Part shown: one piece after another, positions 3,334 through 51,025 of the stretch | How the letters are laid out: each line of letters starts with the position of its first letter | Position numbering within the stretch: position 1 is the stretch's first letter | Assembly (NCBI GenBank): GCA_964473155.1 | Contig: CAYYNT010000009.1 | Location: 17,121-81,120 of the forward strand | Length of the DNA stretch: 64,000 nucleotides | Origin: an uncultured Gemmatimonadales bacterium | GTDB taxonomy: Bacteria; Gemmatimonadota; Glassbacteria; GWA2-58-10 | Direction of reading: 5' to 3' | The notes under the pieces: model-generated | What the model was told of the DNA's origin: nothing | The model's database searches: none | What the model saw: the letters and a program-made list of their open reading frames with translations, nothing else | Position numbers and translations under genes: made by a program

Positions 3334-3345
3334 GCAACGGAGACA

Positions 3346-3386: not shown

Positions 3387-3405
3387 CCGATCTGTCACAG
3401 ATTAT

Positions 3406-4113
3406 TTACTGTGAAACACCGCTTTCCTGGTTGTGCTGGATCACTTTCGTCCCGTCGGGAACCCGGAAAGTAAAGCGTGACTCCGCTATTTTCGGGTTTA
3501 ACCGGTGACTGGAGTACTCATAAATCGAACGGTCGCCGTTTGTCTGTACAATTTCAGTGCGCACCGGGTACCAGCGTCCCTCTGTAACAGTCAGCAGAAC
3601 TTTCTGAATCCCCAGCACCGGACTTGCCGCCGAGGCCCCCTGGATGGGAACCAATCCCAGGGTGATAAGCTCAGCGCCGGAGCTCTCGCGCTGACGGGAT
3701 TCGAGGCTCACCTGGAACTGCTCACGGATACGCGCCGCAGAACCGCCGAATCCGACGAACAGTGCGCTCATGTCCTTGGCCTGCTTGACCGAAAACTCGT
3801 GCACCTGCTTGAGATCGGGGTAATGCAGCCAGCCGCGGTTATGGTTGATAATCAACTGCTGGTGCTCAGGGGACTGTGTGTCCAGCACCAGCTTGTCCGG
3901 ATTACGGAAATAGAACTTCCCGCTCGATACGATTTTCTCATCGAAAACTGTCATGATTTTGGTCTGGACGAAATCCGCCTGCATGTCCTCCAGGCGGGCC
4001 GAACTCTCGGCCATGCGGTCCAGGACCTGATCGACGCTCATCCCGGCCGCCTGTGCCATCCCTGAAAGAGCCAGAACAAAAAACCAGATCAGCAGAACTA
4101 ATCCTTTTCTCAT
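3406..4113 (-). CDS. LolA-family outer-membrane lipoprotein carrier-like periplasmic protein
   Basis: Signal peptide MRKGLVLLIWFFVLALSGMAQA. The LolA-like pattern F.Q.....F......SG.F....P.KL.LD.......LI.N....W.Y.P.L.QV is present. I chose the ATG (MRKG) preceded by GAGGGTGA; the track ORF starts 12 nt upstream at a GTG. Confidence 0.65.
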   Translation of the reverse strand: MRKGLVLLIWFFVLALSGMAQAAGMSVDQVLDRMAESSARLEDMQADFVQTKIMTVFDEKIVSSGKFYFRNPDKLVLDTQSPEHQQLIINHNRGWLHYPDLKQVHEFSVKQAKDMSALFVGFGGSAARIREQFQVSLESRQRESSGAELITLGLVPIQGASAASPVLGIQKVLLTVTEGRWYPVRTEIVQTNGDRSIYEYSSHRLNPKIAESRFTFRVPDGTKVIQHNQESGVSQ

Positions 4114-29929: not shown

Positions 29930-30627
29930 AATCGAGGCTCCTCGGCTTGGATTGCATGTCCGGACTGCCATAAGCCGCGTTCGGCTGACAGTCGGTTTCG
30001 CGGGTAATCAATGTTAACCTGTCAAGCCTCAGGAAGCAAGCCAGAAATGCAAGGCGCAAACTCTCGATTGTCCATGTACTATGTACGGCCCGGGATTTCA
30101 GAATGGAAAAGCGCCTGTCAGACCGGCAATGAAAAAGCCATCCGAGGACATGACCTTTCGGATATCGTTGTCCAGGAGCGCGAAAAAACCCGCTGACAGT
30201 ATAAGACAGCGTCTTCCGGCAAGGTCCAGCCGCAGGCTTAGATTTATCCGGAGTTCTGAAAACGCGGCCCTGTCCAATCCTTAACAGAAACGTTTGAACC
30301 CGGATAGGGCTGTTGCACTTTCCAGACGTTTAACAGCCGAATAATCCAGAAGTCCGTTTTTCTGGTTTTGCTCACATATTCATGTTAATCCTGACAAACG
30401 GCTTATCTTTATCGAGGTAAGGACATTGCTCGGAAATACCAGTCAACTGCATTTACCATTTTATCCCGCCATCAGATTTTCTTTCTGATCTATTCTGCGA
30501 CCAAATCAAGCACAGATGTATATAAATCACCCGCGCAGTGGCATCCTTTCTTTATTTGATCAGGTTTAGATGTCAGCGTGTCCACAGATAAGAATCTATG
30601 TCATCAACCGTCCATACCAAAAGACTA

Positions 30628-30654
30628 TTGACATCGCAAGAGACAGACTATATT
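30628..30654 (+). promoter_or_regulatory. Candidate sigma70 promoter for the HTH-EIIA / Ehr operon
   Basis: TTGACA, a 15-nt spacer, then TATATT, inside an AT-rich ~400-bp intergenic island and ~40 nt upstream of the AAGAGAAGAGGG RBS. The spacer is shorter than the ideal 17. Confidence 0.3.
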
Positions 30655-30692
30655 TTATGTCTCAACCAAACACATGAAAAGAGAAGAGGGAA

Positions 30693-31400
30693 ATGCACTT
30701 ACACGTTCGCGACGTCGCCCGGATACTGAGCGTCTCCGAGAAGACAGTCTACCGCTGGATCAGCCAGGGGGCCATCCCGGCCTACCGTGTGCAGGACCAG
30801 TACCGGATCCACCGCGCCGAACTTCTGGAATGGGTCACCCAGCGCAAGATCAAGGTTTCCGAGGAAATTTTCCAGGAGCCCGAGGCCGCCGGTGAGCAGC
30901 CAGGACTGGCCCCGGCGCTGGAAGCCGGCGGTGTTTTCTACCGGGTGGACGGACGCGACCGGGATTCCGTGCTGCGCGAGGTTGTCAACTCGATGCGTCT
31001 GCCGGATGGAGTCGACCGGGAATTTCTGTATCAGATAATCCTGGCCCGCGAAAACATGTGCTCCACGGCCGTGGGTGACGGTATCGCCATCCCGCATCCC
31101 AGAAGCCCGATGGTCCTGCACGTGGCCCGTCCCTCGATCACTCTGTGCTTCCTGGAGCATCCGGTCGATTTCAGCGCCATGGACATGCAGCCGGTGCGCG
31201 TGCTTTTCACCCTGGTCAGCCCGACTGTCCGCGGCCATCTGGCGATGCTTTCACGCCTCTCCTTTGCAATCCACGATCAAGGTTTCAGGCAGGTGATCCT
31301 CACTCCCGGCACCCGGGAGGAAATCCTCCGCGAATCGCGGAGACTGGACGAAATGTTAGACAAACGGGCGCCCGGCGGCGAGAAACGGAATGTTGTGTAA
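30693..31400 (+). CDS. Transcriptional regulator: N-terminal MerR/excisionase-type HTH (HTH_17) fused to a PTS EIIA type-2 (PtsN/EIIA-Ntr-like) domain
   Basis: The N-terminus VRDVARILSVSEKTVYRWISQGAIPAYRV is a helix-turn-helix. The C-terminal domain has GDGIAIPHP (the phosphorylatable His of EIIA-2/PtsN proteins). Its stop is immediately followed by the GTG start of the next gene. Confidence 0.6.
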   Translation: MHLHVRDVARILSVSEKTVYRWISQGAIPAYRVQDQYRIHRAELLEWVTQRKIKVSEEIFQEPEAAGEQPGLAPALEAGGVFYRVDGRDRDSVLREVVNSMRLPDGVDREFLYQIILARENMCSTAVGDGIAIPHPRSPMVLHVARPSITLCFLEHPVDFSAMDMQPVRVLFTLVSPTVRGHLAMLSRLSFAIHDQGFRQVILTPGTREEILRESRRLDEMLDKRAPGGEKRNVV

Positions 31401-33395
31401 GTGACTGGACTTCTTTTCGTATCTCTTGTCTTCCTTCTCGCCGGTGGCGTTCTGGCGCTTGTTTTCAGCCGTTCCAGACTCTGGCCGGCCTGCTTTGGAG
31501 TGACCGGCGCGGTGCTGGGCAGCCTGTCCGGTCTGGCCGGCTCGATCCAGGCCCTTGCTGATGGCGTGTTCTGGAATTACCGCCTGGCCTGGTCCCTGCC
31601 CGGCGGATCGCTTAATGTAGGGATGGATCCGCTGTCCGCGTTCTTTCTTTTCACCCTGTTTCTGCTCACCGGACTGACCTCCATTTTCGGCCATGGATAC
31701 CTGGCCGCCCATACCGGTCACAGGAACCCGGGCATTTCCTGGTTCTTTTTCAATCTGCTGGCCGCCAGCATGGCGGTCGTGTTCATGGCGCGCAATGCGC
31801 TGCTGTTCCTGATCGCCTGGGAAGTCATGGCTGTCAGCTCATTCTTTCTCGTCACTTTCGAGCACGAAAAACCTCAGGTTCGCGGGGCGGGGTTCTCTTA
31901 TCTGGTGGCGACTCACCTGGGAACAGCTTTCCTGCTGCTGTTTTTTGTCATTCTGGCCGGGCAGACCGGCTCATTTGATTTCGGGAGCCATGCCGCGGCC
32001 GGAGTGTCCAGCGCCGGACTGCTTTTCATTCTGGCCCTGGTGGGATTTGGCTCCAAATCCGGTATCGCGCCTTTCCATGTCTGGCTGCCCGAGGCGCATC
32101 CCTCGGCTCCCAGCCATGTTTCGGCACTGATGTCGGGAGTAATGATCAAGACCGGAATTTATGGCCTCCTGCGCGCGACTATCCTGCTTGGCCCGCCGCC
32201 TGCCTGGTGGGGCTGGTGCCTGGTCGGGATCGGCCTGAGTTCTGGTTTCCTCGGCGTGCTGTTCGCTCTGGTCCAGCACGACCTGAAGCGCCTTCTGGCC
32301 TATCACAGCGTGGAGAATATCGGAATCATTTTCCTCGGGTTGGGCCTGGGCATGCTGGGCTGGCAGGCAGGCATTATCCCCCTGGCAGTCGCCGGGTTTG
32401 CCGGAGCGCTGTTTCATGTGCTGAATCACGCTGTTTTCAAGGGCCTTCTGTTTCTGGACACTGGGGCAGTGTTGCAGGCTGCCGGCGGACGGGAACTGGA
32501 CAGCCTGGGCGGTCTTTACCGGAGGATGCCCTGGACCGGCCTGAGTTTTCTTGCCGGGGCGGTGGCTATCTCGGGGCTGCCGCCGCTCAACGGCTTTATC
32601 AGCGAGTTTCTGATTTTCCGGGCGGGTCTTTCGGGCACGATACTCCCTCTTGGGAGTGTAACGGTCCCGTCATTGCTTGTAATCGGCGGACTGGGACTTA
32701 TCGGAGGACTGGCCGCCGCCTGTTTCGCCAAATTCTTCGGCGTCGTTTTTCTGGGCGAGCCGCGCGGCGAGGACACTGATAAGGTTAAGGATCCCGGTCT
32801 TGCAATGCGTCTGCCGTTGCTTTTCCTGGCCCTCCTGTGTCTCGGTCTTGCCCTGGCCTCTCCCTGGCTGCTGCCTTTCCTTGGCCCGGTGATTTCTGTC
32901 CTGACCGGGTTCGGTCAGGCGGCCGTCAGCGATTCGCTGACAGCTTTCAGCGCTTTACTGGTCTATATCAGCGCGTTTTCCGGCGCAGTAGTTGTTCTGT
33001 CCGCCGTTATTTTCATCGCGCGGCGATGGCTGCTGGCCCGGAGAAAAGTCGATTCGGCGGTTACCTGGGACTGTGGTTATTCCGCACCCTCGCCGCGCAT
33101 GCAATATACCGGCTCGTCCTTTGTGCGTCCGCTCTCCGCTCTTTTCCAGCCTTTACTGGCGGTGCGCCAGGAATATACCGCCCCCGAGGGAGTATTCCCC
33201 AAAAGAACGAGCCATCTGACCACGCATGCCCGGGACCTGTTCCGCTCGTTTTTCTATGATCCGCTGTTTCGGCTGATCAGCCGGACAGCGGGACGGTTTC
33301 TCTGGCTTCAGCACGGGAACATTCATCTCTACATTCTATATATAGCGGCCACCCTGTTTCTTCTGCTGATCTGGAAACTGGGGGTGGGCCTGTGA
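31401..33395 (+). CDS. NuoL/MnhA/HyfB-like proton-pumping antiporter-type membrane subunit (EhrA-like)
   Basis: ~16 TM helices, with the ...WEVMAVSSFFLV... and ...FHVWLPEAHPSAPSHVSALMSGVMIKTGIYGLLR... signature of complex-I antiporter-like subunits. GTG start. Confidence 0.8.
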   Translation: MTGLLFVSLVFLLAGGVLALVFSRSRLWPACFGVTGAVLGSLSGLAGSIQALADGVFWNYRLAWSLPGGSLNVGMDPLSAFFLFTLFLLTGLTSIFGHGYLAAHTGHRNPGISWFFFNLLAASMAVVFMARNALLFLIAWEVMAVSSFFLVTFEHEKPQVRGAGFSYLVATHLGTAFLLLFFVILAGQTGSFDFGSHAAAGVSSAGLLFILALVGFGSKSGIAPFHVWLPEAHPSAPSHVSALMSGVMIKTGIYGLLRATILLGPPPAWWGWCLVGIGLSSGFLGVLFALVQHDLKRLLAYHSVENIGIIFLGLGLGMLGWQAGIIPLAVAGFAGALFHVLNHAVFKGLLFLDTGAVLQAAGGRELDSLGGLYRRMPWTGLSFLAGAVAISGLPPLNGFISEFLIFRAGLSGTILPLGSVTVPSLLVIGGLGLIGGLAAACFAKFFGVVFLGEPRGEDTDKVKDPGLAMRLPLLFLALLCLGLALASPWLLPFLGPVISVLTGFGQAAVSDSLTAFSALLVYISAFSGAVVVLSAVIFIARRWLLARRKVDSAVTWDCGYSAPSPRMQYTGSSFVRPLSALFQPLLAVRQEYTAPEGVFPKRTSHLTTHARDLFRSFFYDPLFRLISRTAGRFLWLQHGNIHLYILYIAATLFLLLIWKLGVGL

Positions 33396-34300
33396 GAGTG
33401 AGCGGACTGGTCAGCCTTGTCATGGCCCTGGTTTTCAGCCCTCTGCTGATCGGAATAATCAATCGGGTCAAAGCCTTTTTCGCCGGACGGAGGGGCTTGC
33501 CGCTGCTGCAACTTTACCGCGACCTGGCCAAACTTCTTCGCAAAGGCGCGGTCTACAGCCGGACATCCACCTGGATTCTGCGTGCAGGCCCGGCCGCGGG
33601 GCTGATCTGCATAATGGCGGCAGCGGCCCTGACTCCTTTCGGCGGACGCTCCCTGTTCGGTTTCGAGGGCGACCTGGTCCTGTTCGCCGGGCTGCTCGCG
33701 CTGATGCGCTTCAGCACGGTGCTTGCCGCTCTGGACACCGGCTCCAGTTTCGAGGGAATGGGGGCGAGCCGGGAAATGCATTTTTCGGTGCTGGCCGAAC
33801 CGGCGCTCCTGCTTGGCCTGACTGTCCTGGCCACGGGGACCGGTTGTATTTCGCTCGGTGCGATATACAGCCGGCTGGGGATGGAGTTATGGCTCAAAGC
33901 CGCTCCGGCGCTGGTTCTGACAATCCTTGCCTTTTCCGTGGTCTTTCTGACTGAAAACGCGCGAATCCCGGTCGATGACCCCAACACGCACCTGGAACTG
34001 ACCATGATTCACGAAGTGATGGTGCTGGACCACTCAGGCCCCGATCTGGCGATCATCCAGTATGCCGCCGCCCTCAAGCTCTGGGTGCTGGGATGCCTGA
34101 TAGTGGGCATTCTGGCCCCGCTGCACAGCGGGATGTTGTGGCTGGACTGCCTGGTTTCTCTTGGCGGTTTGATGCTGTTAGCCGTGGGAGTGGGAGTGGT
34201 CGAATCATCCATGGCCCGGCTGCGCCTGATCAACGTTCCCCGTCTGCTGCTGGGGGCGATTGTTTTCAACGTACTCGCGCTGATTCTTATTCTTAAGTAA
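33392..34300 (+). CDS. NuoH/HycD/HyfC-like membrane subunit (EhrB-like)
   Basis: The N-terminal R(R)GLPLLQLYRDL..KLL.K matches the RxGP..(L)Q..AD..K motif of NuoH/HycD. Eight predicted TM helices. The GTGA overlap with the upstream stop suggests coupling. Confidence 0.7.
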   Translation: MRVSGLVSLVMALVFSPLLIGIINRVKAFFAGRRGLPLLQLYRDLAKLLRKGAVYSRTSTWILRAGPAAGLICIMAAAALTPFGGRSLFGFEGDLVLFAGLLALMRFSTVLAALDTGSSFEGMGASREMHFSVLAEPALLLGLTVLATGTGCISLGAIYSRLGMELWLKAAPALVLTILAFSVVFLTENARIPVDDPNTHLELTMIHEVMVLDHSGPDLAIIQYAAALKLWVLGCLIVGILAPLHSGMLWLDCLVSLGGLMLLAVGVGVVESSMARLRLINVPRLLLGAIVFNVLALILILK

Positions 34301-34312
34301 GAGGCGGCTGAC

Positions 34313-34957
34313 ATGCTTGTCCTGCTGGATTCCGTCATAGTGCTGGTTCTGGTGACCGACCTCCTTCTGCTCTCCTCGAGCCGGCTTAACTACTGCATAC
34401 GCATAGTAGCGTTCCAGGGGGCGCTGGTGGGCCTTCTCCCGCTGTTGCTGCATTTCAGCGAGATAGCAGTGCAGGTGCTGCTGATATCACTGGCCGGGAT
34501 AGTTCTCAAACTGCTCGTATTCCCCTGGCTGCTGCTGCGAGCCATGCGCGGCGCGGATGTCAGGAGGGAAATAGAACCCTACGTTGGCTATTCGCTGTCT
34601 CTGCTGGCGGGAGTGGGGATGCTGATCGCCGCGTTCTGGATCGGCTCCCGGTTACCTCTGACTATTGCCGGACTGCAGCCCTCAGTGATTCCGATGGCCT
34701 TTTTCAACATTTTCACCGGTCTTTTTCTGCTGATCAGCCGCAGAAAAGCCCTCACTCAGGTGCTGGGTTACCTGGTGATGGAGAACGGAATCTACATTTT
34801 CGGCGCCGTCGTAGTCGTCGAGGCCCCGCTGATGGTGGAGTTGGGCATTCTGCTGGATGTTTTCATGCTCGTTTTCGTCCTGGGCATCATTCTGTTTCAT
34901 ATCAGCCGGGATTTCGACCATCTGGACATCGACCGTCTCAGTGCGCTGAAAGACTGA
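34313..34957 (+). CDS. HyfE-like small membrane subunit (EhrC-like)
   Basis: ~214-aa hydrophobic protein with 6-7 TM helices, with the size and position of HyfE/MbhE-type subunits. Confidence 0.55.
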   Translation: MLVLLDSVIVLVLVTDLLLLSSSRLNYCIRIVAFQGALVGLLPLLLHFSEIAVQVLLISLAGIVLKLLVFPWLLLRAMRGADVRREIEPYVGYSLSLLAGVGMLIAAFWIGSRLPLTIAGLQPSVIPMAFFNIFTGLFLLISRRKALTQVLGYLVMENGIYIFGAVVVVEAPLMVELGILLDVFMLVFVLGIILFHISRDFDHLDIDRLSALKD

Positions 34958-35014
34958 GATAGTGAAAACGCTACGGCCGGTCACACACCGGACAGAATAC
35001 TGGAAAGCTGAACC

Positions 35015-36490
35015 ATGTTGATTGCCTTCTTTATATTGCCAGCCCTGGCAGGACTGCTGGCTCTCGTCATACACAACGATTCACTGCGGCGGGCGCTTCT
35101 GCTGTCTGTTGCAGGTATCCATCTGGCGCTGACCGCAACAGCCTGGTTCAAGCCACCTGTGTCTTCGCCGGTCGAGTATCTGAGTCTTGATCCGCTGGGT
35201 CTTCTTTTTCTGAGTATCCTGAGCTTGCTTTTTCTTTTTTCAGCTATCTATGCCAGTGGATATCTGAAAAGGGAAAGTGATTCGAACCAGCCCGACATTT
35301 TAGAGGGCACCTTTTTCGCGCGCTCCCAGGAAGCCGTATTCACCTGCTGTATGATGGAATTCCTGGCCACGATGTCCCTGGTGACGCTCTGCCAGCATTT
35401 CGGCCTTCTCTGGGTGGCGGTTGAGGCGACCACGCTGGTAAGCGCGCCCCTGATATATTATCACCGCAATCATCGCTCCCTCGAAGCGACCTGGAAGTAT
35501 CTGATTCTATGCTCGGTGGGCATCGCAATCGCCCTTCTCGGGAATTTTTTCCTGGCGGTCGCGGCCTCGGGCCATGAAGGGCATGAAACGCCTCTGGTGC
35601 TGAGACACCTGGTGCTGAGGGCCGGGGAATTGCATCCCCAATGGCTTAAAGGCGCTTTTTTGCTTCTTCTGGTGGGCTATGGGACCAAGATGGGCCTGGC
35701 CCCTATGCACTCCTGGCTGCCCGACGCCCACAGCGAATCGCCATCGTTCGTTTCGATGCTCCTTTCGGGCGCGCTCCTGAATTGCGCTTTCCTGGGCCTT
35801 CTGCGAATCTTCCAGGTCTGCAACGCCGCCGGGCTGGGTCAGTTCGCCCGCGAACTGATGGTCCTTTTCGGCTTCGTTTCTCTGGCCACGGCCGCCGTAT
35901 TCATCATACGCCAGACTGATTATAAGCGCATGCTGGCTTATTCCAGCGTGGAACACATGGGAATTCTGTGTCTTGGCGTGGGATTCGGCGGCGCGGGAGT
36001 GTTCGGAGCGCTGCTGCACGCGGTCAACCATTCTCTTACCAAGGGCATGCTTTTCCTTGTCGCGGGCAACCTTCTGAGCGCTTACAAGACGCGTAATATC
36101 GGCGAGGTCAGGGGGGCGCTGAATGTCCTGCCTGTTTCCGGGGCCTTGTGGCTGGCCGGGTTCCTGGCGATCACCGGGACTCCGCCATTCGGTCTGTTCA
36201 TCAGCGAATTCACTATCCTGCGCTCCCTGGTTGACGCGGGCAGCCTGGCTGCGGCAGGCGGTTACCTGCTCCTTCTGGGGATCATATTTGCCGGTATGGC
36301 CAATATCATGCTCAACATGTCGCAGGGAAAAAACGAGCGTGAAATGTCCCCCGCCTTGAGGGCCGAAGCCTCCAGTTCGGTTATCCCTCCGCTGTGCCTG
36401 GGAGCGCTGACTTTGATACTGGGCCTGTATCAGCCCGCTATGCTCGCAGAAAAACTTCAACAGGCAGCCCGTCTGCTGGGAGGGTTCTGA
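35015..36490 (+). CDS. NuoM/NuoN/HyfF-like antiporter-type membrane subunit (EhrD-like)
   Basis: ...MGLAPMHSWLPDAHSESPSFVSMLLSGALLNCAFLGLLR... and ...YSSVEHMGIL... are the conserved proton-pumping subunit core motifs. Confidence 0.8.
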   Translation: MLIAFFILPALAGLLALVIHNDSLRRALLLSVAGIHLALTATAWFKPPVSSPVEYLSLDPLGLLFLSILSLLFLFSAIYASGYLKRESDSNQPDILEGTFFARSQEAVFTCCMMEFLATMSLVTLCQHFGLLWVAVEATTLVSAPLIYYHRNHRSLEATWKYLILCSVGIAIALLGNFFLAVAASGHEGHETPLVLRHLVLRAGELHPQWLKGAFLLLLVGYGTKMGLAPMHSWLPDAHSESPSFVSMLLSGALLNCAFLGLLRIFQVCNAAGLGQFARELMVLFGFVSLATAAVFIIRQTDYKRMLAYSSVEHMGILCLGVGFGGAGVFGALLHAVNHSLTKGMLFLVAGNLLSAYKTRNIGEVRGALNVLPVSGALWLAGFLAITGTPPFGLFISEFTILRSLVDAGSLAAAGGYLLLLGIIFAGMANIMLNMSQGKNEREMSPALRAEASSSVIPPLCLGALTLILGLYQPAMLAEKLQQAARLLGGF

Positions 36491-38010
36491 TGAGTTTTGC
36501 GGACTGCGCGAGGCTGATGAACGGCCAGGCTGTCGCCTGCTCCTCGATCCCGGAATGCGGGATAGAAGATTTCCGCGAGGCGGTGCTGGTGGATATCGAA
36601 AGCGGGGCGCATCTCAGCGCCTTTTTCGGACAGGGCCGGCCGGACGGTAAAGTAAAGCTTTGGGCGGTTCTGGCCTGTCCCTCCCAAGGCGACCTGGCGG
36701 TCTATACCACCTGCGCCGGACAATCCTGGCCCTCACTGACGCCGGACTGTCCGCAGGCTCATCTGTTCGAGCGCGAGCTGTTCGAGCAGTGGGGAATAGT
36801 CCCGGAGGGCCATCCCTGGCTGAAACCTGTGCGGTTCCAGGCGCCATTCCGTAAACCGGACAGTCTGCCCGAAACCTGCAAAGCCCCGGAAATCGGAACG
36901 GATTACCAGTTTTTCCGTGTCGAGGGCGAGGAGGTGCACGAGGTGGCGGTGGGTCCGGTGCACGCCGGAATCATCGAGCCGGGCCACTTCCGCTTCCAGT
37001 GCAGCGGGGAGGAAGTGCTGCACCTGGAAATCGCACTGGGATACCAGCACCGGGGCGTCGAGCGTGCCATGCGCGGCGGGCCGGACAGGCGTTCGATACA
37101 TTATATGGAAACACTCGCGGGCGATACCACCGTGGGCCATGCCACGGCTTACTGCCAGACCCTGGAGGCGCTCTGCGGAACACGTCTCGGCGTCCGCGCG
37201 CAGACTCTGCGCGCCATAGCCCTGGAACTGGAGCGTATGGCAAACCACATCGGGGATCTGGGGGCGCTGGCCGGCGATGTGGGTTACTTGCCCACGGCGT
37301 CCTATTGCGGCCGCCTGCGCGGCGATGTCCTCAATCTGACAGCCCTGGTCTGTGGAAGCCGTTTCGGACGCGGCTGGATCAGGCCCGGCGGATCGGGGTT
37401 CGACATCGAGCCGCCGATGGCGGAGAAAATCGCCGCCCGCCTGAGAGAAATAATGAAAGACCTCGATGGAGCGGTAAAACTGCTCTGGAACACCCCCTCG
37501 GTGATGGCCCGTTTCGAGAAGATCGGTGTGCTGACTCCCGCCGTAGGAGAAGAGCTGGGGCTGGTCGGACCGGCGGCCCGGGCCTGCGGATTGTCGAGGG
37601 ATGTAAGGTTCGAGTTTCCGGCAGGCAAATACCGTTTCTCCCAGATACCGCTTTCCACCTGGTCCACCGGGGATGTGTTCGCCAGGGCCTGGGTGCGCTG
37701 GCTTGAGCTTCAGAGTTCGGCCGAGTTCATCCTGACGGAGCTTGGTTCGCTGCAGCCCGAGCCTGCGCTCAGGGAACCGGGCGTCCCGGCCCCGTTGTCA
37801 CTGGCGGTCTCGCTTGTCGAGGGCTGGCGCGGTGAAATATGCCACGTGGCCATTACCGATGAGCAGGGACGTTTCTCCAGCTACAAGGTGGCCGATCCGT
37901 CTTTCCATAACTGGACAGGGCTGGCGCTGGCCATGCGGGGCGGACAGATATCGGATTTCCCCTTATGCAACAAGAGTTTCAACCTGTCCTATTGCGGGCA
38001 CGATCTCTGA
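36490..38010 (+). CDS. NuoC-NuoD fusion-like large subunit (HycE/EchE-like) lacking the [NiFe]-binding cysteine motifs (EhrL-like)
   Basis: The N-terminal ~170 aa are NuoC-like. They are followed by GPVHAGIIEPGHFRF...LHLEIALGYQHRGVE (the NuoD / NiFe large-subunit core). Where group-4 hydrogenases have RxCGxC, this protein has ETLAGDTT. The C-terminus has DFPLCNKSFNLSYCGH instead of DPCxxC. The ATG overlaps the upstream stop (TGATG). Confidence 0.7.
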   Translation: MSFADCARLMNGQAVACSSIPECGIEDFREAVLVDIESGAHLSAFFGQGRPDGKVKLWAVLACPSQGDLAVYTTCAGQSWPSLTPDCPQAHLFERELFEQWGIVPEGHPWLKPVRFQAPFRKPDSLPETCKAPEIGTDYQFFRVEGEEVHEVAVGPVHAGIIEPGHFRFQCSGEEVLHLEIALGYQHRGVERAMRGGPDRRSIHYMETLAGDTTVGHATAYCQTLEALCGTRLGVRAQTLRAIALELERMANHIGDLGALAGDVGYLPTASYCGRLRGDVLNLTALVCGSRFGRGWIRPGGSGFDIEPPMAEKIAARLREIMKDLDGAVKLLWNTPSVMARFEKIGVLTPAVGEELGLVGPAARACGLSRDVRFEFPAGKYRFSQIPLSTWSTGDVFARAWVRWLELQSSAEFILTELGSLQPEPALREPGVPAPLSLAVSLVEGWRGEICHVAITDEQGRFSSYKVADPSFHNWTGLALAMRGGQISDFPLCNKSFNLSYCGHDL

Positions 38011-38019
38011 GGACGACAG

Positions 38020-38778
38020 ATGTTCAAGGTGCTGTTCGAAAGATTAAGCCAGGGACACCGGCGTTTCCCGTTCCTGAAAAAAACTCCGGTGCTGCCGGAG
38101 CGTTTCCGGGGCCTTCCGGCGCTTAATGCCGCTAAGGGTGAAGAATGCGGCGAAGCCCTCACCCAAGCCTGTCCGTACGGCGCCATTTCCGGCAAAGGGG
38201 AAACTCTTGCGATCGATCTGGGACGCTGCCTGTTCTGCGCGGATTGCAAGGCGGCCTGTCCCGGAGGAGCGGTTGAATTCAGCAACGATTACCGTCTGGC
38301 CGTGCGCCGGCGGGCAGACCTTGTGCTGCGCGATAATTGCCTTCATCTGGCCGAGGCGCTGGACAAAAAAGCCCGGAGCCTGTTCGGCCGCTCTCTGACA
38401 TTGAGACAGGTGAGCGCCGGAGGCTGCAACGCCTGCGAGGCGGATGTCAACGTGCTCAACACCCTGACTTACGATCTGGCCAGTTACGGCATACAGTTCG
38501 CCGCCTCACCCCGTCATGCGGATGGCCTCCTGGTGACTGGGCCGGTCACGGCCAATATGCGGCTGGCCCTGGAAAAAACCTGGCAGGCCGTGCCGGACCC
38601 GAAGATCGTGATCGCGGCCGGAGCCTGCGCCATCTCCGGCGGACCATACCGCGATCACCCGGAAACAGCGAACGGAGTCGATTCCGTATTGCCGGTCGAT
38701 CTTTACATCCCCGGCTGCCCGCCCCACCCCTGGACAATCCTGGACGGCCTTCTGCGCCTGCTGGGGCGGATACGCTGA
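38020..38778 (+). CDS. NuoB-like small subunit with N-terminal ferredoxin-like 4Fe-4S extension (EhrS-like)
   Basis: The N-terminus has CLFCADCKAACP (CxxCxxCxxxCP) plus a degenerate second motif. The C-terminal part has NuoB motifs: GGCNAC, FAASPRHADGLLVTGPVT, IAAGACAISGGPY and IPGCPP. That gives four Cys for a proximal cluster, but CxxC replaces the usual CC pair. Confidence 0.7.
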   Translation: MFKVLFERLSQGHRRFPFLKKTPVLPERFRGLPALNAAKGEECGEALTQACPYGAISGKGETLAIDLGRCLFCADCKAACPGGAVEFSNDYRLAVRRRADLVLRDNCLHLAEALDKKARSLFGRSLTLRQVSAGGCNACEADVNVLNTLTYDLASYGIQFAASPRHADGLLVTGPVTANMRLALEKTWQAVPDPKIVIAAGACAISGGPYRDHPETANGVDSVLPVDLYIPGCPPHPWTILDGLLRLLGRIR

Positions 38779-42462: not shown

Positions 42463-45400
42463 TCACTCCCGTTCGCTGTCAAGCACCTTCCGGACCTTGT
42501 CAGCCAACTCTTTCATCGCGAACGGCTTCTGGATGAAATGCACACCTTCATCGAGAACCCCGTGGTGCGCGATTACATTTGCGGTATAGCCCGACATGAA
42601 AAGCCGCTTTATTCCGGGATACAAGGACAGCACTCTTTTTGCCAGATCGCGGCCGTTCATTTCTGGCATGATGACATCCGTGATCAGAAGGTGGATTTCG
42701 CCGGCATGCAACTCGGCCAGCCGGATTGCCTCGCCGGGTGTGGAGGCGGCCAGTACTTCATAGCCGAGACTCAACAGCATTCTCTGGCCCAGGTGCAGAA
42801 ATTCGGGTTCATCCTCCACCAGAAGGATACTTTCCCGGCCATGCGGGACAGGAGAAACAGGCCGCTCTTTCTGGAACTCCTCAGTCTTGGCCATATACCT
42901 GGGCAGATAAATCTTGAAAGTAGTGCCCCGTCCCAGTTCGCTGTACACATTTATGCAGCCGTTATTCTGCTTGACAATACCGTATACGGTAGCCAGCCCC
43001 AGCCCGGTGCCCTTGCCGATCTCCTTGGTCGTGAAAAACGGCTCGAACAGTTTGTCCTGCGTCTCTCTGTCCATCCCGCAACCGTTGTCGCTCAAGGATA
43101 GAACTACGTACTCCCCAGGTATATAGCCTGCATGATCCCTGCAATATGCCTCATCCAGCACGGCATTGTCCGTCTCGATAGTGATCTGGCCCACCCCAGC
43201 GATGGCGTCTCTCGCATTTACGCATAGATTGGCAAGAATCTGGTCTATCTGGCTGGGGTCCATCTTAATCGGTGACACTCTCGCTCCGGGGATCCAGGTA
43301 AGCTCTATGTCCTCACCGATCAAACGCCTCAGCATCTTGAGCATCCCCTCGACAGTCTCGTTCAGGTCGAGCACCTTTGGCGCGACAGTCTGTCTGCGGG
43401 CGAAAGCCAGCAGTTGCCTGGTCAGATTGGCCGAGCGCTCGGCGGCTTTCCGGATTTCCTGTATGTCGGCATAGAGAGGTTCCGAGGGATCGATCAGTTC
43501 CAATGCCAGCTCTGAATGACCGATAATAATCCCCAGCATATTGTTGAAATCGTGGGCCACTCCACCCGCCAGCCGCCCAACGGACTCCATTTTCTGCGCC
43601 TGGTTAAGCTGCGCCTGAAGCTTTTCCTTTTCCCGCTCGGCCTGTTTATGCTCTGTAACATCATGGATGATGAAATGAAGCAGGGCCTGACCTTTGACAT
43701 CGATTACGCTTGTATAGACCGCCACATCTCTGATCGAGCCATCGGCCAGCCGGTGCTGGAATTCAAAATAAATTCGCTTCTGCTCCCTGGCTTTCTCAAT
43801 CTCAGCTTTGACCAGTTCCGGAGAAATAGTGTTGATATCCTGAATAAACATCTGTCTGAGCTTTTCTTCCGGCCAGCCATAAAACCGCACCGCAGCTTCA
43901 TTGGCCTCGACAATTCTACCGTCCGCCGGATCGATGATCAGCTTGACGGCTGAGTGCTTATGGAAAAGATGGCGAAACTTTTCTTCGCTTTCTTTCAGTT
44001 CCTCTTCCGCCCGTTTACGCTCTGTTATATCGAAAATGAAGGCGACAAATACCGGATACCCTTCAGTCATCAACTGCAGGTGAATCTCCACCGGGTATAG
44101 TGTTTTATCCTTCCGGCGATGAAAAGTCTTGAAAACAATCACTTTTTCCTTGCCGGTCCGCAGCGGAGCAATCAGCCGGTCGAACATTTCAACCGTGAAT
44201 TCCGGTTTCAGGTCCAGGGGCGTCATTCCGCGCAGTTCATCAATCGTGTATCCCAGGTTTTCGCGCGCCCCCTGATTCACATTTATGAAACGAAGTGTTT
44301 CGGAATCGAAAATATAGATTTCATTGAGAGAAGACTCTATCAGGCGGCTGAAACGTACTATTTCCTGCTCTGTCCGTTTGCGCTCGGTTATGTCGCGCCA
44401 GATGCACTGGTAAACAGGTTCTCCCATTACATCTACAATTTGAGCTGTGACATGGACGTTCCTTGTCTCTCCCTGACTGGTGCGCTGCAGGGTCTCGAAA
44501 TCCGTCTTACCGTTCTGGATCACCCGCGCAATATGCTCCTGCGTATCTCCGGCTGTTTCCCTGGCTTCTATATCCGATATCTTCAGTTGCGCAAATTCTT
44601 CGCGGGTATATCCAAGCTGAGCGTGCGCCGCGGTGTTGAATTCAAGAAATCCTCCAGTGGACGTATCTATAATCAGAATACCGTCAGGAGATTGTTCGAA
44701 CAGCGTCCGTCTGCGGATTGATTGTTTTTCGAGTTCCTTTTCCGTCTTTTTGCGTTCAGTGATGTCCTTGGATGAACACATCACTGAAATAATTTCTCCT
44801 GCAACATCTTTTATCGGAGTTATCGTAGTCACGTAATACCGGTCAAAATCCGGGCGTGAAGCGTGTACTTCCATGATTTTTACCTCGCCGCTGCGAAGCA
44901 CCTCTTCAACGGATTCTGAACATCTATCCGCTTCCTTCTCTGAAAGAACGTCCCGGATTCTTTTCCCGATGACACTGTCGACCGCGACACCCACGCTTTC
45001 AGCAAAGGCTTTGTTGGCGTAGCTGTATTTCCCTTCAGGCGTCATAGAAAAAATCGGATCGGATGATTCCTCAAGAAGGAGCCGATGTTTCTCCTCGCTC
45101 TCACGCAACGCATTAATGTAGTGGATGGTATCTATCTGCTCCGACAGTATTTTGCCGGAAAGGATCGTCGCCAGCGGGTACAGCAATATCACAGGCAGGC
45201 CGATATGCTTTATTACAGTCACCCCCGCACCATCAGGCAGAGTGAACATCAGAGCAAGCATTGCCAGGTGAACAGCCAGACCGAACAGATATAGATTTTG
45301 CGAGGATGGAGATTTGACTTGAAGCTTTAGAAGGCCTCGAACCAGCAGTCCAATCAAGACCGATGAAAGAATAACCAGAATACCGGTCAGCAAGCCTGCG

Positions 45401-45690
45401 CCACCAATTAGAATTCGGCAGGCCACGGTCATTGCGCTCGATATAATTCCAGCCCAGGGACCGAAGTACAAAGCACAAAGGCTGACCATGACCGAACGGC
45501 CGTCAAATATCAGACCGGGGCCCATATTAAGCGGCCGAAGCATTCCTAACACCGCGCTCCCGCCGAATAAAAGACCCTGCAGTATGACTCCAGACAATGT
45601 GTTCCGCGGCCAGCGCTTTACGATGAAATTTGAAACTATGCTGAGAGCCACCAGCAATGCCAGGTTGAGCACCAAATCGAGATAAACCAT
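42463..45690 (-). CDS. Hybrid sensor kinase: N-terminal 5TMR-LYT membrane domain, multiple PAS domains, HisKA/HATPase_c and C-terminal receiver
   Basis: Five TM helices at the N-terminus, of the LytS-YhcK type. At least four PAS-like segments follow (repeated ...ITERK..E.E...). H-box VAHDFNNML, then N, G1 and G2 boxes. The terminal REC has VIMPEMNG. Confidence 0.8.
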
Positions 45691-46141
45691 CCGTCACTTT
45701 TCCTGACTTTGATTGGTTTATTAGCTCTATTTTGAGATATCTTATATTTTTTTGATCAAATCCACCTTTTAAATAATATTGCACTGACAGATACATAGTA
45801 AAGAAATTCCATGCAATTGACTATTCCCCGCGTTAGAACCGCGAGGCATCACGTCAATTCGCCGCCACTTAGTGACACAGAAATCTCCAAAACCTAAAAA
45901 CATATTCAGCTCGATAGCATGGGCAGGCAGGCGGCCAGCGCATGTCACCCATTGGATTTAGCTCCGCTGCTTGCGCTTGACAAGCATTTAGCGCTTTACA
46001 GCCGGAAACCTCCGGATTGGTTGCTCCCCGGCCGGGTTGCTTTAGTCCAGAACGACTGCACCGGGCCGCGGTATTGACCACACATACCGCGGCTAACGCG
46101 TATATCCTGAACCATCCGGCGGAACGCCGGTTCTGGTGACG

Positions 46142-48397
46142 TCAACTGCCTTGAATCTCAAGCAGTTTTTCCTCTATTCTACGGCGCCACTGGTCCATTT
46201 TTCCGTTGTCCTGGGCCGAATACCAGAAATCCGTCACCGTGCTGCTTCCGCGCAGCCCCATTGAATCGTGGATTTCCGCATACAGTTTCGAGAGGAAATC
46301 CCCGATGTCCACCCCCCTGGCCGTTGCCTCACGCTTGAGAGTCTCAAGCAGACGGCGCTCGTCCCAGGCCTCCGAGAGCCCCATCATATAAGGCGTGGGA
46401 ATTATATCGAAAGGTGTGTTCCAGACACAGATCCAGTTTTCGCCCTCGAGCGTGTCGAAACGGTTGCCCCAGTTGTAAGCCCAGACCAGGGAGCCCACGC
46501 TTCCGTTGGCAGCGAAATAATAACCGAACGTATAACGCGCCCGGCCTGGCAGGCCGGCATCTCCCGTGCCGCTGTATTCCCAGAACTCCACCCCGGCGTC
46601 CCTGACCTGGCCGGGCAGGACGGGGTTCTCGTGCGTCGCGTTAGTGCAGAAAACATCCAGATAAGGCAGAAAATCAATACCGCCTTTGTAATGGTGTATG
46701 TCACCGCTGATAATAAAGTCGCTGTTGCCTTCTTTGAGCAGGTTTCTCATATCTATGAAATGCGACTTTATAAATGTCAGCGTATCGGTATATGCGCGCA
46801 TCTGCTCCCAGCGCCTGGCGCTCTGGATCCACTTGGCTGGCTCATCGAACGGAGTGACATTGAGCTTTGGCCAGTTGTTCGCCAAAGCATGCTCGCGGAC
46901 CCGTCCCGCCCACTCCACCACCAGGGGCCTCAGCCTGCTGTTCACCGAATCAGGCTTCTCCCAGAGCAGCGCGTCCGCACCCTTCTGATCCAGCCCTAAC
47001 GCGGCCATGGCCAGGGTCTGTTCGAGCTTCATCGTGCGGGGGAAACCGTACGGATTTTCGCCGAGGAACCAGAATATGTAATTGATGTCATTGCCGCGGC
47101 AGGCCTTCATGAACAGATCGAACCCGCGCCAGTCGAACTCGAAACCGCCGTCCCCGGTCCCTTTCAGTTCAGGCCTCGCGCTGAAATACCAGGGGATGAC
47201 GCAGTTGTGATTGTAGCGGCCGAGGCGCTCGATCTCATGGTAAGGAAGCAGCCCGCGGGTGCAATTTCCGAGAGTAAGCCCCGCCTCGTTCATGGTCAGA
47301 AGCTTTATCGGCAGGATTTCCAGTTTCAGGGGCACTGTCACCGGATCCGCATTCGCCGCGCTTATCACGATCCGGGTGACGTACTCCCCGGCCCTGGCGC
47401 CCTCTGCACCGGCTGTGTTTATCTCGAGCCACACGGCATGGCTTCTGGATTGCGGCACATCGAACTTATAAGACGGCCAAAGCCGCTGTGGAAATGGTTT
47501 CACCGGCAGAATACTGTCGTTCGTCCGCACCAGAGCGTATTCCACCACCCGGACACCGCACAGAGCGACAACGCTCCCGTCCGCGGCCTTTATTTCGCCG
47601 ACAGTCACCGCTACCCCGCTCAAATCCTTTCCGTTCGCATATACACCTATCTGTGCCAGTTCAATCTCGTTAAGGCTCTGACGGACCCGGAGAGTGTCGG
47701 GGATCTCCCCCTGCTGAGGCGCGGCGATATTCACCAGGGGGTCCATCCAGCTCCGGGCGAACGGAACTATCGCGCTCCGCGACCACGCCTCCGGAATGAC
47801 AGGTTTCTGAGCGTACTCATAATACTTTTCCGGAACGGATTCACGGCGCTGGACCCTTTCCACCCAGGCGCGGGTCTCCGCATTGTACCTCTCCTCATCC
47901 CCCGGCTCGCTCTCGACCAGTCTGGCCGAACGCACGCTCAGTTCACCTTCGCGGCTCAGAAGGCGGAACCTGGCGGTCGAATCCGGTTCGCAGAGCGCCA
48001 GGAATCCACTCTCGCATGGTATCCTGACCGTTTTCCACTGATTGTCGTTCAGCCCGCCGAAACGGTGCAGTTCGCTGTAGCGCACGCTCACATCCAACTG
48101 GCTGAATACCTGGGCGATTATCGGCCGGGTGACATTGTCGAGGTATTCAACTTCCAGGTTGAAATGATAGCGCCCGGAGGGCCTGTAGCCCTCCCACCAC
48201 GCGGCAGCTTCAAGGGTAATCGATTTTCCCTTGTACATCTCGGCATACTCATCGCCTTCCGAACCATCTCCCGAAACGGAAGAAAGCTCGACCGGAAATA
48301 TTTTTCCATCGGCATTCCGGGAAGTCTTACCGCCACAGGAGGCATTCAGCAGAACGAGAAAAATCATAACACTTAGTGCGATAAACCTGCTGTTCAT
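46142..48397 (-). CDS. Large secreted lipoprotein of unknown function (possible glycoside-hydrolase-like TIM-barrel protein)
   Basis: Lipoprotein signal MNSRFIALSVMIFLVLLNASCGG (the ATG has a GGAGGG RBS). The 750-aa mature protein has no motif I can assign. Its aromatic/acidic-rich C-terminal half is reminiscent of carbohydrate-active enzymes. Confidence 0.5.
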   Translation of the reverse strand: MNSRFIALSVMIFLVLLNASCGGKTSRNADGKIFPVELSSVSGDGSEGDEYAEMYKGKSITLEAAAWWEGYRPSGRYHFNLEVEYLDNVTRPIIAQVFSQLDVSVRYSELHRFGGLNDNQWKTVRIPCESGFLALCEPDSTARFRLLSREGELSVRSARLVESEPGDEERYNAETRAWVERVQRRESVPEKYYEYAQKPVIPEAWSRSAIVPFARSWMDPLVNIAAPQQGEIPDTLRVRQSLNEIELAQIGVYANGKDLSGVAVTVGEIKAADGSVVALCGVRVVEYALVRTNDSILPVKPFPQRLWPSYKFDVPQSRSHAVWLEINTAGAEGARAGEYVTRIVISAANADPVTVPLKLEILPIKLLTMNEAGLTLGNCTRGLLPYHEIERLGRYNHNCVIPWYFSARPELKGTGDGGFEFDWRGFDLFMKACRGNDINYIFWFLGENPYGFPRTMKLEQTLAMAALGLDQKGADALLWEKPDSVNSRLRPLVVEWAGRVREHALANNWPKLNVTPFDEPAKWIQSARRWEQMRAYTDTLTFIKSHFIDMRNLLKEGNSDFIISGDIHHYKGGIDFLPYLDVFCTNATHENPVLPGQVRDAGVEFWEYSGTGDAGLPGRARYTFGYYFAANGSVGSLVWAYNWGNRFDTLEGENWICVWNTPFDIIPTPYMMGLSEAWDERRLLETLKREATARGVDIGDFLSKLYAEIHDSMGLRGSSTVTDFWYSAQDNGKMDQWRRRIEEKLLEIQGS

Positions 48398-48486
48398 ACA
48401 ACCCTCCAGGAAATATTCCGGTTCAAACGAGTTTCCCTCCGGCACGGAAGCAGGCGGGATAATATTTATCTGCCAGTCGGTTCAGT

Positions 48487-50406: not shown

Positions 50407-50763
50407 GTGAACCTCCCGGGGTTCTTGCCGTCAGTGCATATAAAAACCAGGTGGGATTACTCTCCGGATGCCTGCTGGAAATCTGCCCGAAACAGAAAGA
50501 CCGGGTGTTCTGACCGGTGAAAAATTTAATCGCCGAGATACATTAGGACAGAACCTGCCAAAGCGGTAATGCGGTTGCAATGTCCATATCGTAAACGTTG
50601 ATTCGGGGAAATCTCAGAGACAACCTGAACATCCGGTGATACGACAGGACACGGCAGCCAGCCGAGGCTGGCGAGCTGCGACCGCTGTGTAAAAAACTGT
50701 AAGACAGATATTGAGAAGAGCACGGATTAAGGCAACCAGAACGCTTCAACAGCGAGGTAAATC

Positions 50764-50791
50764 AGTCGCTCAACAATGAGCGACTTTTTTC
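50764..50791 (+). terminator. Orphan plus-strand rho-independent terminator/attenuator in the leader of the envelope-module operon
   Basis: agtcgctc / gagcgact is a perfect 8-bp stem with a 6-nt loop, followed by tttttt. No plus-strand coding gene lies upstream (the nearest upstream gene is on the minus strand, ending ~360 nt away). Confidence 0.5.
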
Positions 50792-51025
50792 TACCGGGGA
50801 ATTTATGCTGTCACCTTGCTTTCGCAATCAAAAACAATATTCGAGCCGTTCTATCAATCCCCTGCAACAGGCGTCGAAGGTAAAAGTGAAAAGGTGAAGA
50901 ATAGAGCCGGAGGTGTCAAATCAGTTGCTTTTCCCGGCACATGTCTCTTAATTTCAAATGATGCCTGTATAATATGTGTTCTGATAACTGTCTGTATATG
51001 TTCTCCAATTCAGCCTGTGCGGCTT

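Follow-up and report, generated by a model that had tools for sequence, protein, structure and literature searches.

We analyzed a 64,000-nucleotide stretch of DNA from an uncultured Gemmatimonadales bacterium (GenBank assembly GCA_964473155.1, contig CAYYNT010000009.1, positions 17,121 to 81,120; hereafter the window), in which seven tightly packed, co-directional open reading frames (ORFs) occupy positions 30693-38778 of the + strand. They encode a regulator with a helix-turn-helix (HTH) domain fused to a domain resembling enzyme IIA of the nitrogen phosphotransferase system (EIIA(Ntr)), here called R, followed by the six subunits of an energy-converting hydrogenase-related (Ehr) complex. 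An initial annotation, made by reading the sequence, had delimited these seven genes with their stop/start overlaps and assigned the last six to a six-subunit Ehr-type complex. The ORFs, independent gene calls, and our reading of the junctions agree with the first claim, and Pfam, NCBIfam, and Protein Data Bank (PDB) matches for all six subunits with the second. On an identical Joint Genome Institute (JGI) metagenome contig (L081), an independent gene caller annotated the same seven genes, and identical proteins recur in several independent assemblies. The genes are as follows.

30693..31400, + strand: R, 235 aa, HTH_17 plus EIIA(Ntr)-type one-component regulator (Pfam, NCBIfam, PtsN structure alignment)
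31401..33395, + strand: EhrA, 664 aa, HyfB/HycC/NuoL-like antiporter-type subunit (NF005086, E 6e-188)
33392..34300, + strand: EhrB, 302 aa, HycD/NuoH-like (NADHdh) subunit (PF00146)
34313..34957, + strand: EhrC, 214 aa, HyfE-like subunit with a NuoK-like C terminus (NF008556, E 3e-26; PF00420, residues 129-213)
35015..36490, + strand: EhrD, 491 aa, HyfF/NuoM/N-like antiporter-type subunit (NF005044, E 7e-106)
36490..38010, + strand: EhrL, 506 aa, NuoC-NuoD fusion (Complex1_30kDa plus Complex1_49kDa)
38020..38778, + strand: EhrS, fusion of a HycF/NuoI-like ferredoxin with a HycG/NuoB-like module (Oxidored_q6)

At the R/A junction, the GTG start at 31401 immediately follows the TAA stop at 31398 (31398-31403). 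EhrA and EhrB share a GTGA overlap (33392-33395), and EhrD and EhrL share a TGATG overlap (36488-36492) that contains the EhrL start, ATG 36490; a mechanically listed GTG upstream, at 36394, is not the start. The intergenic gaps are 12 nt (B/C), 57 nt (C/D), and 9 nt (L/S). Judged by these junctions, the seven genes are a translationally coupled operon. Its boundaries are clear from the flanking gene arrangement on both sides: at the 5' end, a 720-bp AT-rich non-coding stretch separates R from a divergent ADP-ribosylglycohydrolase gene, and at the 3' end, a convergent sugar-ABC-transporter operon starts 5 nt past the last stop. No Rfam family or tRNA was found in the whole window, the 720-bp leader included. 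Since the same seven genes occur in three unrelated neighbourhoods (the window and the related loci L087 and L089), the unit moves and persists as a cassette.

The complex is a member of a known family, Ehr/Hyq. EhrL has more than 8000 homologues, commonly mislabelled "Ni,Fe-hydrogenase III large subunit" or "NADH-quinone oxidoreductase subunit C," and its closest named relative (79% identical) comes from a Candidatus Glassbacteria metagenome-assembled genome (MAG). MAG and genome studies have reported Ehr across many phyla, and it has been discussed as the "missing link" from membrane-bound hydrogenases to complex I. Such clusters are called Ehr, and their role is stated to be unknown or never investigated (PMC7894505, PMC3569383, PMC6349859, PMC10284858). 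The name originated in Geobacter, for EhrA, EhrC, EhrL, and EhrS. For Geobacter sulfurreducens (GSU0739-45), this naming reportedly goes back to Coppi 2005 and Marreiros et al. 2013. The Geobacter Ehr has the same subunit set as the window, with a NuoL-like A, a NuoH-like B, a HyfE-like C, a NuoM/N-like D, a large L devoid of NiFe cysteines, and a small S (PMC7894505, PMC3569383, PMC6349859). Loci from Geobacteraceae, Geobacter, and Geomonas encode an EhrL 55-57% identical to that of the window in the same gene order; unlike the window, Geobacter-type clusters have two ehrA genes, and their R is sometimes divergent (L033, L045). In Geomonas limicola Red745 (L042), a cultured carrier, the order is R-A1-A2-B-C-D-L-S.

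Peripheral and membrane arms of the Ehr complex

Residue-level alignment of EhrL with HycE of the formate hydrogenlyase (FHL) complex (7Z0S_E) pairs the HycE sequence RVCGICGFAH with ETLAGDTTVGH in EhrL and DPCYSC with NLSYCG. When EhrL is aligned to both HycE and MbhL, the four positions of the NiFe cysteines are occupied by Ala, Thr, Ser, and Gly. EhrL contains neither the L1 (RxCGxCxxxH) nor the L2 (DPCxxCxxH/R) motif of group 4 [NiFe] hydrogenases, and the loss of both cysteine motifs claimed in the initial annotation is confirmed residue by residue in the alignment to HycE. The quinone ligands of complex I are absent as well, with Tyr87 and His38 of Thermus thermophilus Nqo4 replaced by Gly and Ile, respectively.

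The sequence that stands in place of these motifs is conserved. Among 19 relatives from many phyla that are 60-89% identical to EhrL, the blocks VGPVHAGIIEPGHFRF and METLAGDTT(V/I)GH are invariant, as are the C-terminal 19 residues, SDFPLCNKSFNLSYCGHDL, which form a family signature. Invariant replacement blocks of this kind argue against decay, and the combination of 54-65% identity across phyla with long invariant stretches indicates strong selection on EhrL rather than a relic. Six family-invariant residues, E163, D212, H217, C493, C502, and H504, would line the pocket at this site. In addition, the Glu of an "EPGH" block in EhrL aligns with a conserved Glu of HycE and MbhL, a residue that we take to serve in proton transfer.

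The small subunit EhrS has two modules. Its N-terminal part (residues ~20-105) is a HycF/MbhN/NuoI-like ferredoxin domain, and its NuoB-like C-terminal part (residues 120-252) best matches MbhJ, with HycG a close second. The four cysteines for a cluster noted in the initial annotation are indeed present, as C136, C139, C203, and C233 of the proximal (N2-type) site, each kept in 37-39 of 40 relatives; its description of EhrS as plainly NuoB-like overlooked the ferredoxin module. That module has one intact [4Fe-4S] motif (C70, C73, and C76 plus C51), and the ligands of its second, distal cluster are partly lost. In the window, the first Cys motif reads G-EE-C-GEA-L-TQA-CP, with Gly at residue 40 and Leu at residue 47 in place of two cysteines; in sister strains that fall into one 90% cluster with the window protein (P0248), and in L087, the motif is C-xx-C-xxx-C-xxx-CP. 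A further sister, P0249, has instead lost C80, a third ligand of this distal [4Fe-4S] cluster. Because all three Cys losses affect this one cluster, it seems to be decaying in the lineage, with the other two clusters kept.

For A, B, D, L, and both modules of S, the closest solved homologue is a subunit of a membrane-bound hydrogenase, either FHL or Mbh: EhrA matches HycC (7Z0S_C, E 1e-70), EhrB matches HycD (7Z0S_D, E 1e-26), EhrD matches Pyrococcus MbhH (6CFW_H), EhrL matches HycE, and the N-terminal module of EhrS matches HycF. These best matches place the complex closer in descent to hydrogenases than to complex I. As read from the alignments, EhrA apparently retains the Glu of transmembrane helix (TM) 5 and the Lys residues of TM7, TM8, and TM12. 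In the alignment of EhrD with MbhH and NuoM, the Glu of TM5 and the Lys residues of TM7 and TM12 are apparently retained, and the central Lys of TM8 appears to be replaced by Asn.

The overall architecture is common to E. coli FHL and hydrogenase-4 (HycCDEFG, 7Z0S; Hyf), from which the window cluster differs in having no NiFe ligands, in the fusion of HycF and HycG into EhrS, and in having no formate dehydrogenase (FDH), HycB-type subunit, or maturation gene in the cluster. With complex I it shares a homologous Q-module/P-module core and the four N2-type cysteines; in contrast to complex I, it has no N-module, NuoA, E, F, G, and J are absent, and its membrane subunits are nearer to Hyc/Mbh than to Nuo. 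From these comparisons, the Ehr complex is a conserved machine that probably translocates ions and has a short Fe-S wire and an unusual pocket. The antiporter-type subunits EhrA and EhrD, with EhrB and EhrC as the connecting module, would form an ion-translocating membrane arm, and EhrL and EhrS a small peripheral arm in which electrons would pass from one ferredoxin-type cluster to the N2-type cluster. At its end, the wire would reach a pocket in which both the NiFe site and the quinone ligands of complex I are missing. The most likely activity would be redox chemistry at this pocket coupled to H+ or Na+ translocation.

The regulator R and its predicted direct-repeat operator

R consists of an HTH_17 domain (residues 5-51, E 6.5e-16) and a PTS_EIIA_2 domain (residues 79-213, E 4e-24). 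The HTH scores 58.8 bits against PF12728 (cut-off 27) and 48.7 bits against the excisionase model TIGR01764 (cut-off 28.8), and its match to HTH_BldC is weak. His135, within GDGIAIPH, is matched in the alignment by the GIAIPH His of E. coli PtsN (position 73, chain 1A6J_A), which we take to be the phosphorylation site of PtsN. These Pfam, NCBIfam, and PtsN comparisons substantiate the earlier description of the first gene as an HTH plus EIIA(Ntr)-like protein with an intact AIPH site. The putative phospho-His is present in 44/44 aligned family members, including a divergent type encoded inside the operon, and the second conserved His of the EIIA fold is also present.

The scores of R against PtsN equivalog models, at 49-51 bits, fall far below the cut-offs of 139-221, so R is not PtsN and represents a separate fusion family, for which databases offer only the names "PTS sugar transporter subunit IIA" or "nitrogen regulatory IIA component." R and PtsN have in common the EIIA_2 fold, the GIAIPH phospho-His motif, and the second His, but PtsN is a stand-alone protein of ~160 aa, whereas R is fused to an HTH and encoded with its target operon rather than with rpoN. 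Transcription factors of the MtlR/LicR/LevR type bind DNA with an activity set by His phosphorylation that depends on the phosphotransferase system (PTS); they carry PTS regulation domains, often with AAA+ or EIIB domains, and control sugar operons. R differs from them in having only an HTH and an EIIA domain and in having a respiratory-type complex as its target. The HTH is the best-conserved part of R, and in an AlphaFold model built from a 15-sequence alignment (mean predicted local distance difference test score, pLDDT, 59), only the HTH is confident (residues 1-40, pLDDT 76-88).

PTS control of the operon via R, proposed in the initial annotation as control by the nitrogen-PTS phosphorelay, is plausible from the EIIA domain and its His. 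Phosphorylation of the EIIA His by HPr or NPr, reporting phosphoenolpyruvate (PEP)/pyruvate and carbon/nitrogen (C/N) state, would switch DNA binding. In one Thermoanaerobaculia MAG (L026), a complete enzyme I gene lies divergently beside R (2132-3925, - strand, 597 aa), encoding the PEP-utilizers N, mobile, and C domains and no GAF domain; it is the only PTS component that adjoins any of ~160 loci. HPr and NPr were not detected in ~2 Mb of loci, a result that is uninformative owing to the small size of these proteins.

To follow R and Ehr across genomes, we used two sets of loci. For the forward set, a degenerate-pattern scan with one genome per species yielded 80 loci with an L subunit 51-64% identical to EhrL, drawn from Planctomycetota, Verrucomicrobiota, Desulfobacterota/Geobacterales, Acidobacteriota, Spirochaetota, Hydrogenedentota, Fibrobacterota, Gemmatimonadota, Omnitrophota, Elusimicrobiota, and Riflebacteria. 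The Ehr gene order is conserved throughout these 80 loci. Where enough upstream sequence was available, a full-length HTH-EIIA gene lies in or beside the Ehr cluster at 42 of 56 loci from about ten phyla. It is directly upstream on the same strand at 29 loci, inside the operon between two ehrA paralogues (the Verrucomicrobia type) at 10 (L047, L049, L050, L055, L060, L064, L066, L072, L077, and L038), divergent at 2, and downstream at 1. The in-operon R of Verrucomicrobia and Opitutae is only 24-30% identical, yet keeps the His and is still HTH_17 plus EIIA_2 by Pfam. The other 14 loci, from Riflebacteria, Elusimicrobia, Geothrix/Holophagae, Desulfovibrionaceae, and others, have no HTH-EIIA gene, and no alternative regulator recurs among them.

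For the reverse set, we scanned metagenome contigs, from peat, bioreactor, and sediment samples among others, with an R alignment and took only the 80 closest relatives (R 55-68% identical). Ehr membrane genes lie directly 3' of R at 46 of the 47 loci with at least 1.5 kb downstream, a result that speaks for these close relatives of R and not for more distant HTH-EIIA proteins. The association of the HTH-EIIA gene with Ehr operons, on which the initial annotation had staked its regulatory proposal, is thus strongly conserved in both directions.

A few loci depart from these arrangements. At L116:3826-4563, R and its operator at -49 stand without Ehr genes downstream. L056:1287-2964 holds two R copies, one of them divergent, and at L019:177-3217, L and S come right after an R-like gene, without membrane genes in between.

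A predicted operator recurs in the upstream regions of the genome loci, a tandem direct repeat aTGTCCAnnnnTGTCCAa with half-sites 10 bp apart and the consensus ATGTCCAAAAATGTCCA. A strict dyad, TGTC-N6-TGTC, on the coding strand within ~130 nt upstream of R (~400 nt in L017), is found at 15 genome loci and at the close relative L089, with only a degenerate form at L087. Upstream of the first membrane gene of R-less loci, it occurs at 0/14. Elsewhere, ~16 such dyads occur in ~1.4 Mb (~2.8 Mb counting both strands), compared with ~40 expected by chance. An operator matrix gives 2.07 matches/kb upstream of R and 0.016/kb elsewhere, a 127-fold difference that is circular in that the matrix was trained on the same sites. 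In the independent metagenome set, the strict dyad lies within 200 nt upstream of R at 33 of 75 loci, against ~0.2 expected, and 22 of these 33 dyads are exactly at -49 from the start codon. The operator tracks R: L116 has it, and in L056 it stands before the second of the two R copies. No TGTCCA dyad was seen at the Verrucomicrobia-type loci with R between two ehrA genes, which points to another operator, or another way of acting, for that R.

The direct-repeat operator, aTGTCCAnnnnTGTCCA, overlies the core promoter in one of two registers, either filling the 17-bp spacer after TTGACA or running from the 3' end of the -10 across +1. Because both registers overlap the core promoter, repression by occlusion is suggested. 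A direct repeat also fits the fold of the HTH, as BldC, which is HTH_17-like, binds direct repeats head to tail (PMC5859096). BldC and R have the HTH_17-type domain and, as predicted for R, the head-to-tail repeat in common; BldC, at 68 residues, stands alone and has a repeat of the AATT type, whereas the HTH of R is joined to a sensor domain and its predicted repeat is TGTCCA. R would be the operon's own transcription factor, its BldC/excisionase-type HTH placed head to tail on TGTCCA repeats spaced 10 bp apart, and bound R would repress where the repeats overlap the -35/-10 spacer or the -10/+1 region.

In the window, the corresponding features are as follows.

30628..30656, + strand: sigma-70-type promoter, TTGACA, 17 nt, TATTTT (10/12 consensus matches)
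30657..30663, + strand: proximal operator half-site, ATGTCTC, right after the -10; second half-site degenerate
30595..30618, + strand: candidate upstream operator, TGTCAT at 30599 and CGTCCA at 30609 in 10-bp phase (10.2 bits, weak)

The only upstream blocks conserved with L087 and L089, whose R proteins are 86% and 78% identical to that of the window, are TATTGACA (30626-30633) and the -10 element TATTTT (30651-30656). At the proximal operator, where the good half-site ATGTCT occupies 30657-30662, the window is ~10 nt shorter than L087 and L089; relatives have aTGTCCAnnnnTGTCCA at this position. Relative to the -35, the upstream pair shares its register with three strong half-sites of L089, and a further TGTCCA lies at 30579, 20 bp upstream of the 30599 half-site; we infer that the pair belongs to R. 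The operator is solid at the level of the family, and its assignment in the window is tentative. No further convincing operator match occurs elsewhere in the window. The initial annotation had suggested looking for an inverted-repeat operator at 30.3-30.7 kb; what we found is the tandem direct repeat, degenerate in the window, and the imperfect inverted repeats present there (e.g., 30354-30401) were rejected, as none is conserved in L087 or L089. A sigma-54/NifA promoter, as in hyq (see below), was likewise rejected, as the sigma-54 consensus has no + strand match upstream of R. Separately, an imperfect direct repeat of ~40 bp brackets the promoter (30584-30624 and 30643-30682, 71-74% identical, 58-59 bp apart), each copy holding a TATGTC(A)TCAACC element that includes one candidate half-site.

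Interpretation in the light of Hyq and other systems

Our favored interpretation, in which we have moderate confidence, is that the window carries a self-contained, probably autoregulated Ehr/Hyq operon that encodes a redox-coupled ion pump under its own HTH-EIIA regulator. Several observations weigh against it. Binding of R to the motif, the sign of the regulation, and the phosphorylation of R are predictions from sequence, and the operator in the window is degenerate, with one good proximal half-site, a 10-bit upstream pair, and no strict dyad. The existence of Ehr loci without R (14 of 56) means that the complex does not require it. Pfam searches of ~27 flanking genes revealed no PTS component, hyp, or fdh gene in the 64-kb window, and a tblastn search of the window with E. 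coli PtsN, NPr, HPr, EI, RapZ, and RpoN likewise found no PTS gene. Electron input via the EhrS ferredoxin domain may be dispensable or altered in this lineage. Finally, the genetics of Hyq, a related system, point to H2 turnover despite absent cysteines, which the model does not explain.

Hyq was described in Azorhizobium caulinodans, where hyqRBCEFGI is a seven-gene, regulator-first "endo-hydrogenase" operon under NifA/sigma-54 control and repressed by glutamine; nodules and cultures no longer recycle H2 once hyq and hup are both deleted, and HyqG also lacks both CxxC motifs (PMC2650096, PMC2930871, PMC3357923). The "function unknown" of the initial annotation is accurate for the Ehr literature, but it overlooks this system. 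Gene order is the same in Hyq and the window, namely a regulator followed by HyfB-, HyfC-, HyfE-, HyfF-, NuoCD-, and NuoB-like genes (PMC2650096; Rhizobium L090). The HyqG of Rhizobium johnstonii pRL11 (L090) is 33% identical to EhrL, and the two share GPVHAGIIEPGHFRF and the C-terminal DFPLCNKSFNxSYxGHDL; the second C-terminal cysteine is C502 in EhrL but C499 in HyqG. The regulators differ: Rhizobium "HyqR" is a 98-aa Xre-type HTH protein (HTH_3) with no similarity to R, and we therefore rejected homology between them. HyqI is without the N-terminal ferredoxin domain of EhrS, the Hyq promoter is of the sigma-54/NifA type where that of the window is sigma-70-type, and the Hyq carriers are alpha-proteobacterial diazotrophs, whereas nothing in the window suggests nitrogen fixation. 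By these criteria, the window falls in the main Ehr clade, and Hyq is probably a sister subfamily of analogous design rather than an orthologue.

More distant clusters (L 35-40% identical) on Burkholderia, Variovorax, Rhodococcus, and Allomeiothermus plasmids have CopG/ArsR neighbours or no regulator. Distant Ehr/Hyq-like six-subunit clusters are common on large plasmids and chromids (L090, L091, L174, L175, and L176), in Rhizobium, Azospirillum, Burkholderia, Cupriavidus, Variovorax, Rhodococcus, and Allomeiothermus, with Xre HTH, CopG, or ArsR regulators; in the Rhodococcus cluster, the NuoB-like gene comes first. At L033:13260-20557, a second, distant Ehr/Hyq-like cluster (L 37% identical) immediately follows the first.

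The strongest alternative, although we consider it unlikely, is that Ehr is a real, non-canonical, hyp-independent hydrogenase whose H2 site is built from conserved Cys, His, and Asp residues, as proposed for Hyq. The identical seven-gene layout, the signature blocks that HyqG and EhrL have in common, the "EPGH" Glu aligned with HycE and MbhL, and the loss of H2 recycling in the hyq hup deletion are in line with this proposal, as is the report (data not shown in the original) that Rhodocista, which has hyq but no hup or hyp, recycles H2 (PMC2650096, PMC2930871, PMC3357923). Nevertheless, a NiFe site is "uncertain, if not unlikely" in the words of those who described Hyq, the case for the family is genetic rather than biochemical, and the H2 phenotypes may be indirect redox effects. 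EhrL is also only distantly related to HyqG and differs from it at the second C-terminal Cys position, and the 64-kb window contains no hyp or nitrogenase genes.

A broader proposal, which we regard as slightly less probable again, is that Ehr/Hyq has a new type of active site, catalyzing hyp-independent H2 turnover or acting on an unrecognised substrate, and that an HTH-EIIA repressor places it under regulatory-PTS gating in most non-proteobacterial carriers. Family-invariant Asp, Cys, and His residues do sit in and around the former NiFe motifs, and the family numbers thousands of members across more than ten phyla. If the proposal is true, a respiratory-type ion pump would be tied directly to the PEP and C/N status of the cell.

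We find it more doubtful that Ehr is a Mrp-like cation/proton antiporter or ion-homeostasis device, in which the Fe-S arm would be a redox sensor or structural plug instead of a catalytic wire, and R would couple expression of the complex, or its activity by direct contact, to the state of PTS(Ntr), much as PtsN acts on K+ systems in enterobacteria; the ion-translocating role suggested in the initial annotation is of this kind. Such a device would account for the two Mrp/antiporter-type subunits with apparently kept channel residues, the decaying ligands of the distal Fe-S cluster in this lineage, the EIIA(Ntr) domain of R, and the SulP/STAS transporters found beside Ehr at 7 loci, one of them with a P-II domain. 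The near invariance across phyla of the N2-type ligands and of residues in the EhrL active-site region argues instead for chemistry, and no K+ transport genes are linked. The PtsN-K+ connection is not known outside proteobacteria, and we found no support for the role in K+ homeostasis suggested in the initial annotation.

Less probable still is that R is not the transcription factor of the operon, with another factor or a promoter element acting at TGTCCA and R working through protein contacts or on other targets. Binding of R to the repeats is predicted from its domain and the motif, the site in the window is degenerate, and the dyad is missing where R lies between two ehrA genes. Against this, the motif tracks R and not Ehr, since none of the 14 R-less loci has it and in L116 it precedes an R that no Ehr genes follow; its -49 position is fixed across phyla; the HTH is the best-conserved part of R; and a different site would be expected for the divergent Verrucomicrobia R, whose recognition helix is different.

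Last, an ordinary group 4 [NiFe] hydrogenase with misread cysteines, or a decaying pseudogene operon, is practically out of the question even though JGI and NCBI label relatives "Ni,Fe-hydrogenase III large subunit" or "hydrogenase": the aligned Ala, Thr, Ser, and Gly and the replacement sequence invariant in 19 diverse relatives already refute it, and the seven intact ORFs with coupled junctions and the identical proteins in several independent assemblies also speak against it.

The main Ehr clade travels as a cassette with its own regulator, an invariant PTS-type His, and a conserved operator on the core promoter. The literature that we searched, which did not include Marreiros et al. 2013, mentions neither the HTH-EIIA gene nor its operator; within that scope, what is new is that Ehr and an HTH_17-EIIA(Ntr) regulator are tightly coupled in both directions, that the operator is a direct repeat confirmed in an independent set, and that HycF and HycG are fused in the small subunit. 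Regulator and operator do not reveal the function itself, but they give a first handle on when Ehr is used and open it to test by asking which PTS state derepresses ehr, under what nutrition, and with what phenotype. They also link two separate literatures, on Ehr in anaerobes and MAGs and on Hyq in rhizobia; both operons are headed by a regulator. Hyq expression is demonstrably tied to nitrogen and redox state, whereas for the Ehr cassette such a tie is suggested by the EIIA(Ntr) domain only.

Neighbouring genes and other features

All-against-all clustering of 613 neighbouring ORFs from the 80 genome loci revealed no recurrent partner enzyme beside Ehr. A partnership between FDH and Ehr has been proposed (PMC6349859); the loci examined here lend it no support. 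The recurrent neighbours are generic sensor kinases and response regulators only, plus a SulP transporter at 7 loci. This SulP anion transporter (Sulfate_transp plus STAS) adjoins Ehr co-directionally at L019, L046, L047, L055, L072, L078, and L079 (e.g., L046:2330-4237 and L079:9991-11952), in Verrucomicrobiota, Planctomycetota, and Omnitrophota; neither the window nor any of the 80 metagenome loci has it, and in L079 it is fused to a P-II nitrogen-regulatory domain.

Elsewhere in the window, three long ORFs (767, 639, and 413 aa) at 46142-52057 are without a Pfam match at E 1e-4. The G+C content drops to 0.48 at 44-46 kb (44001-46000), inside or beside a large PAS/5TMR-LYT hybrid histidine kinase gene.

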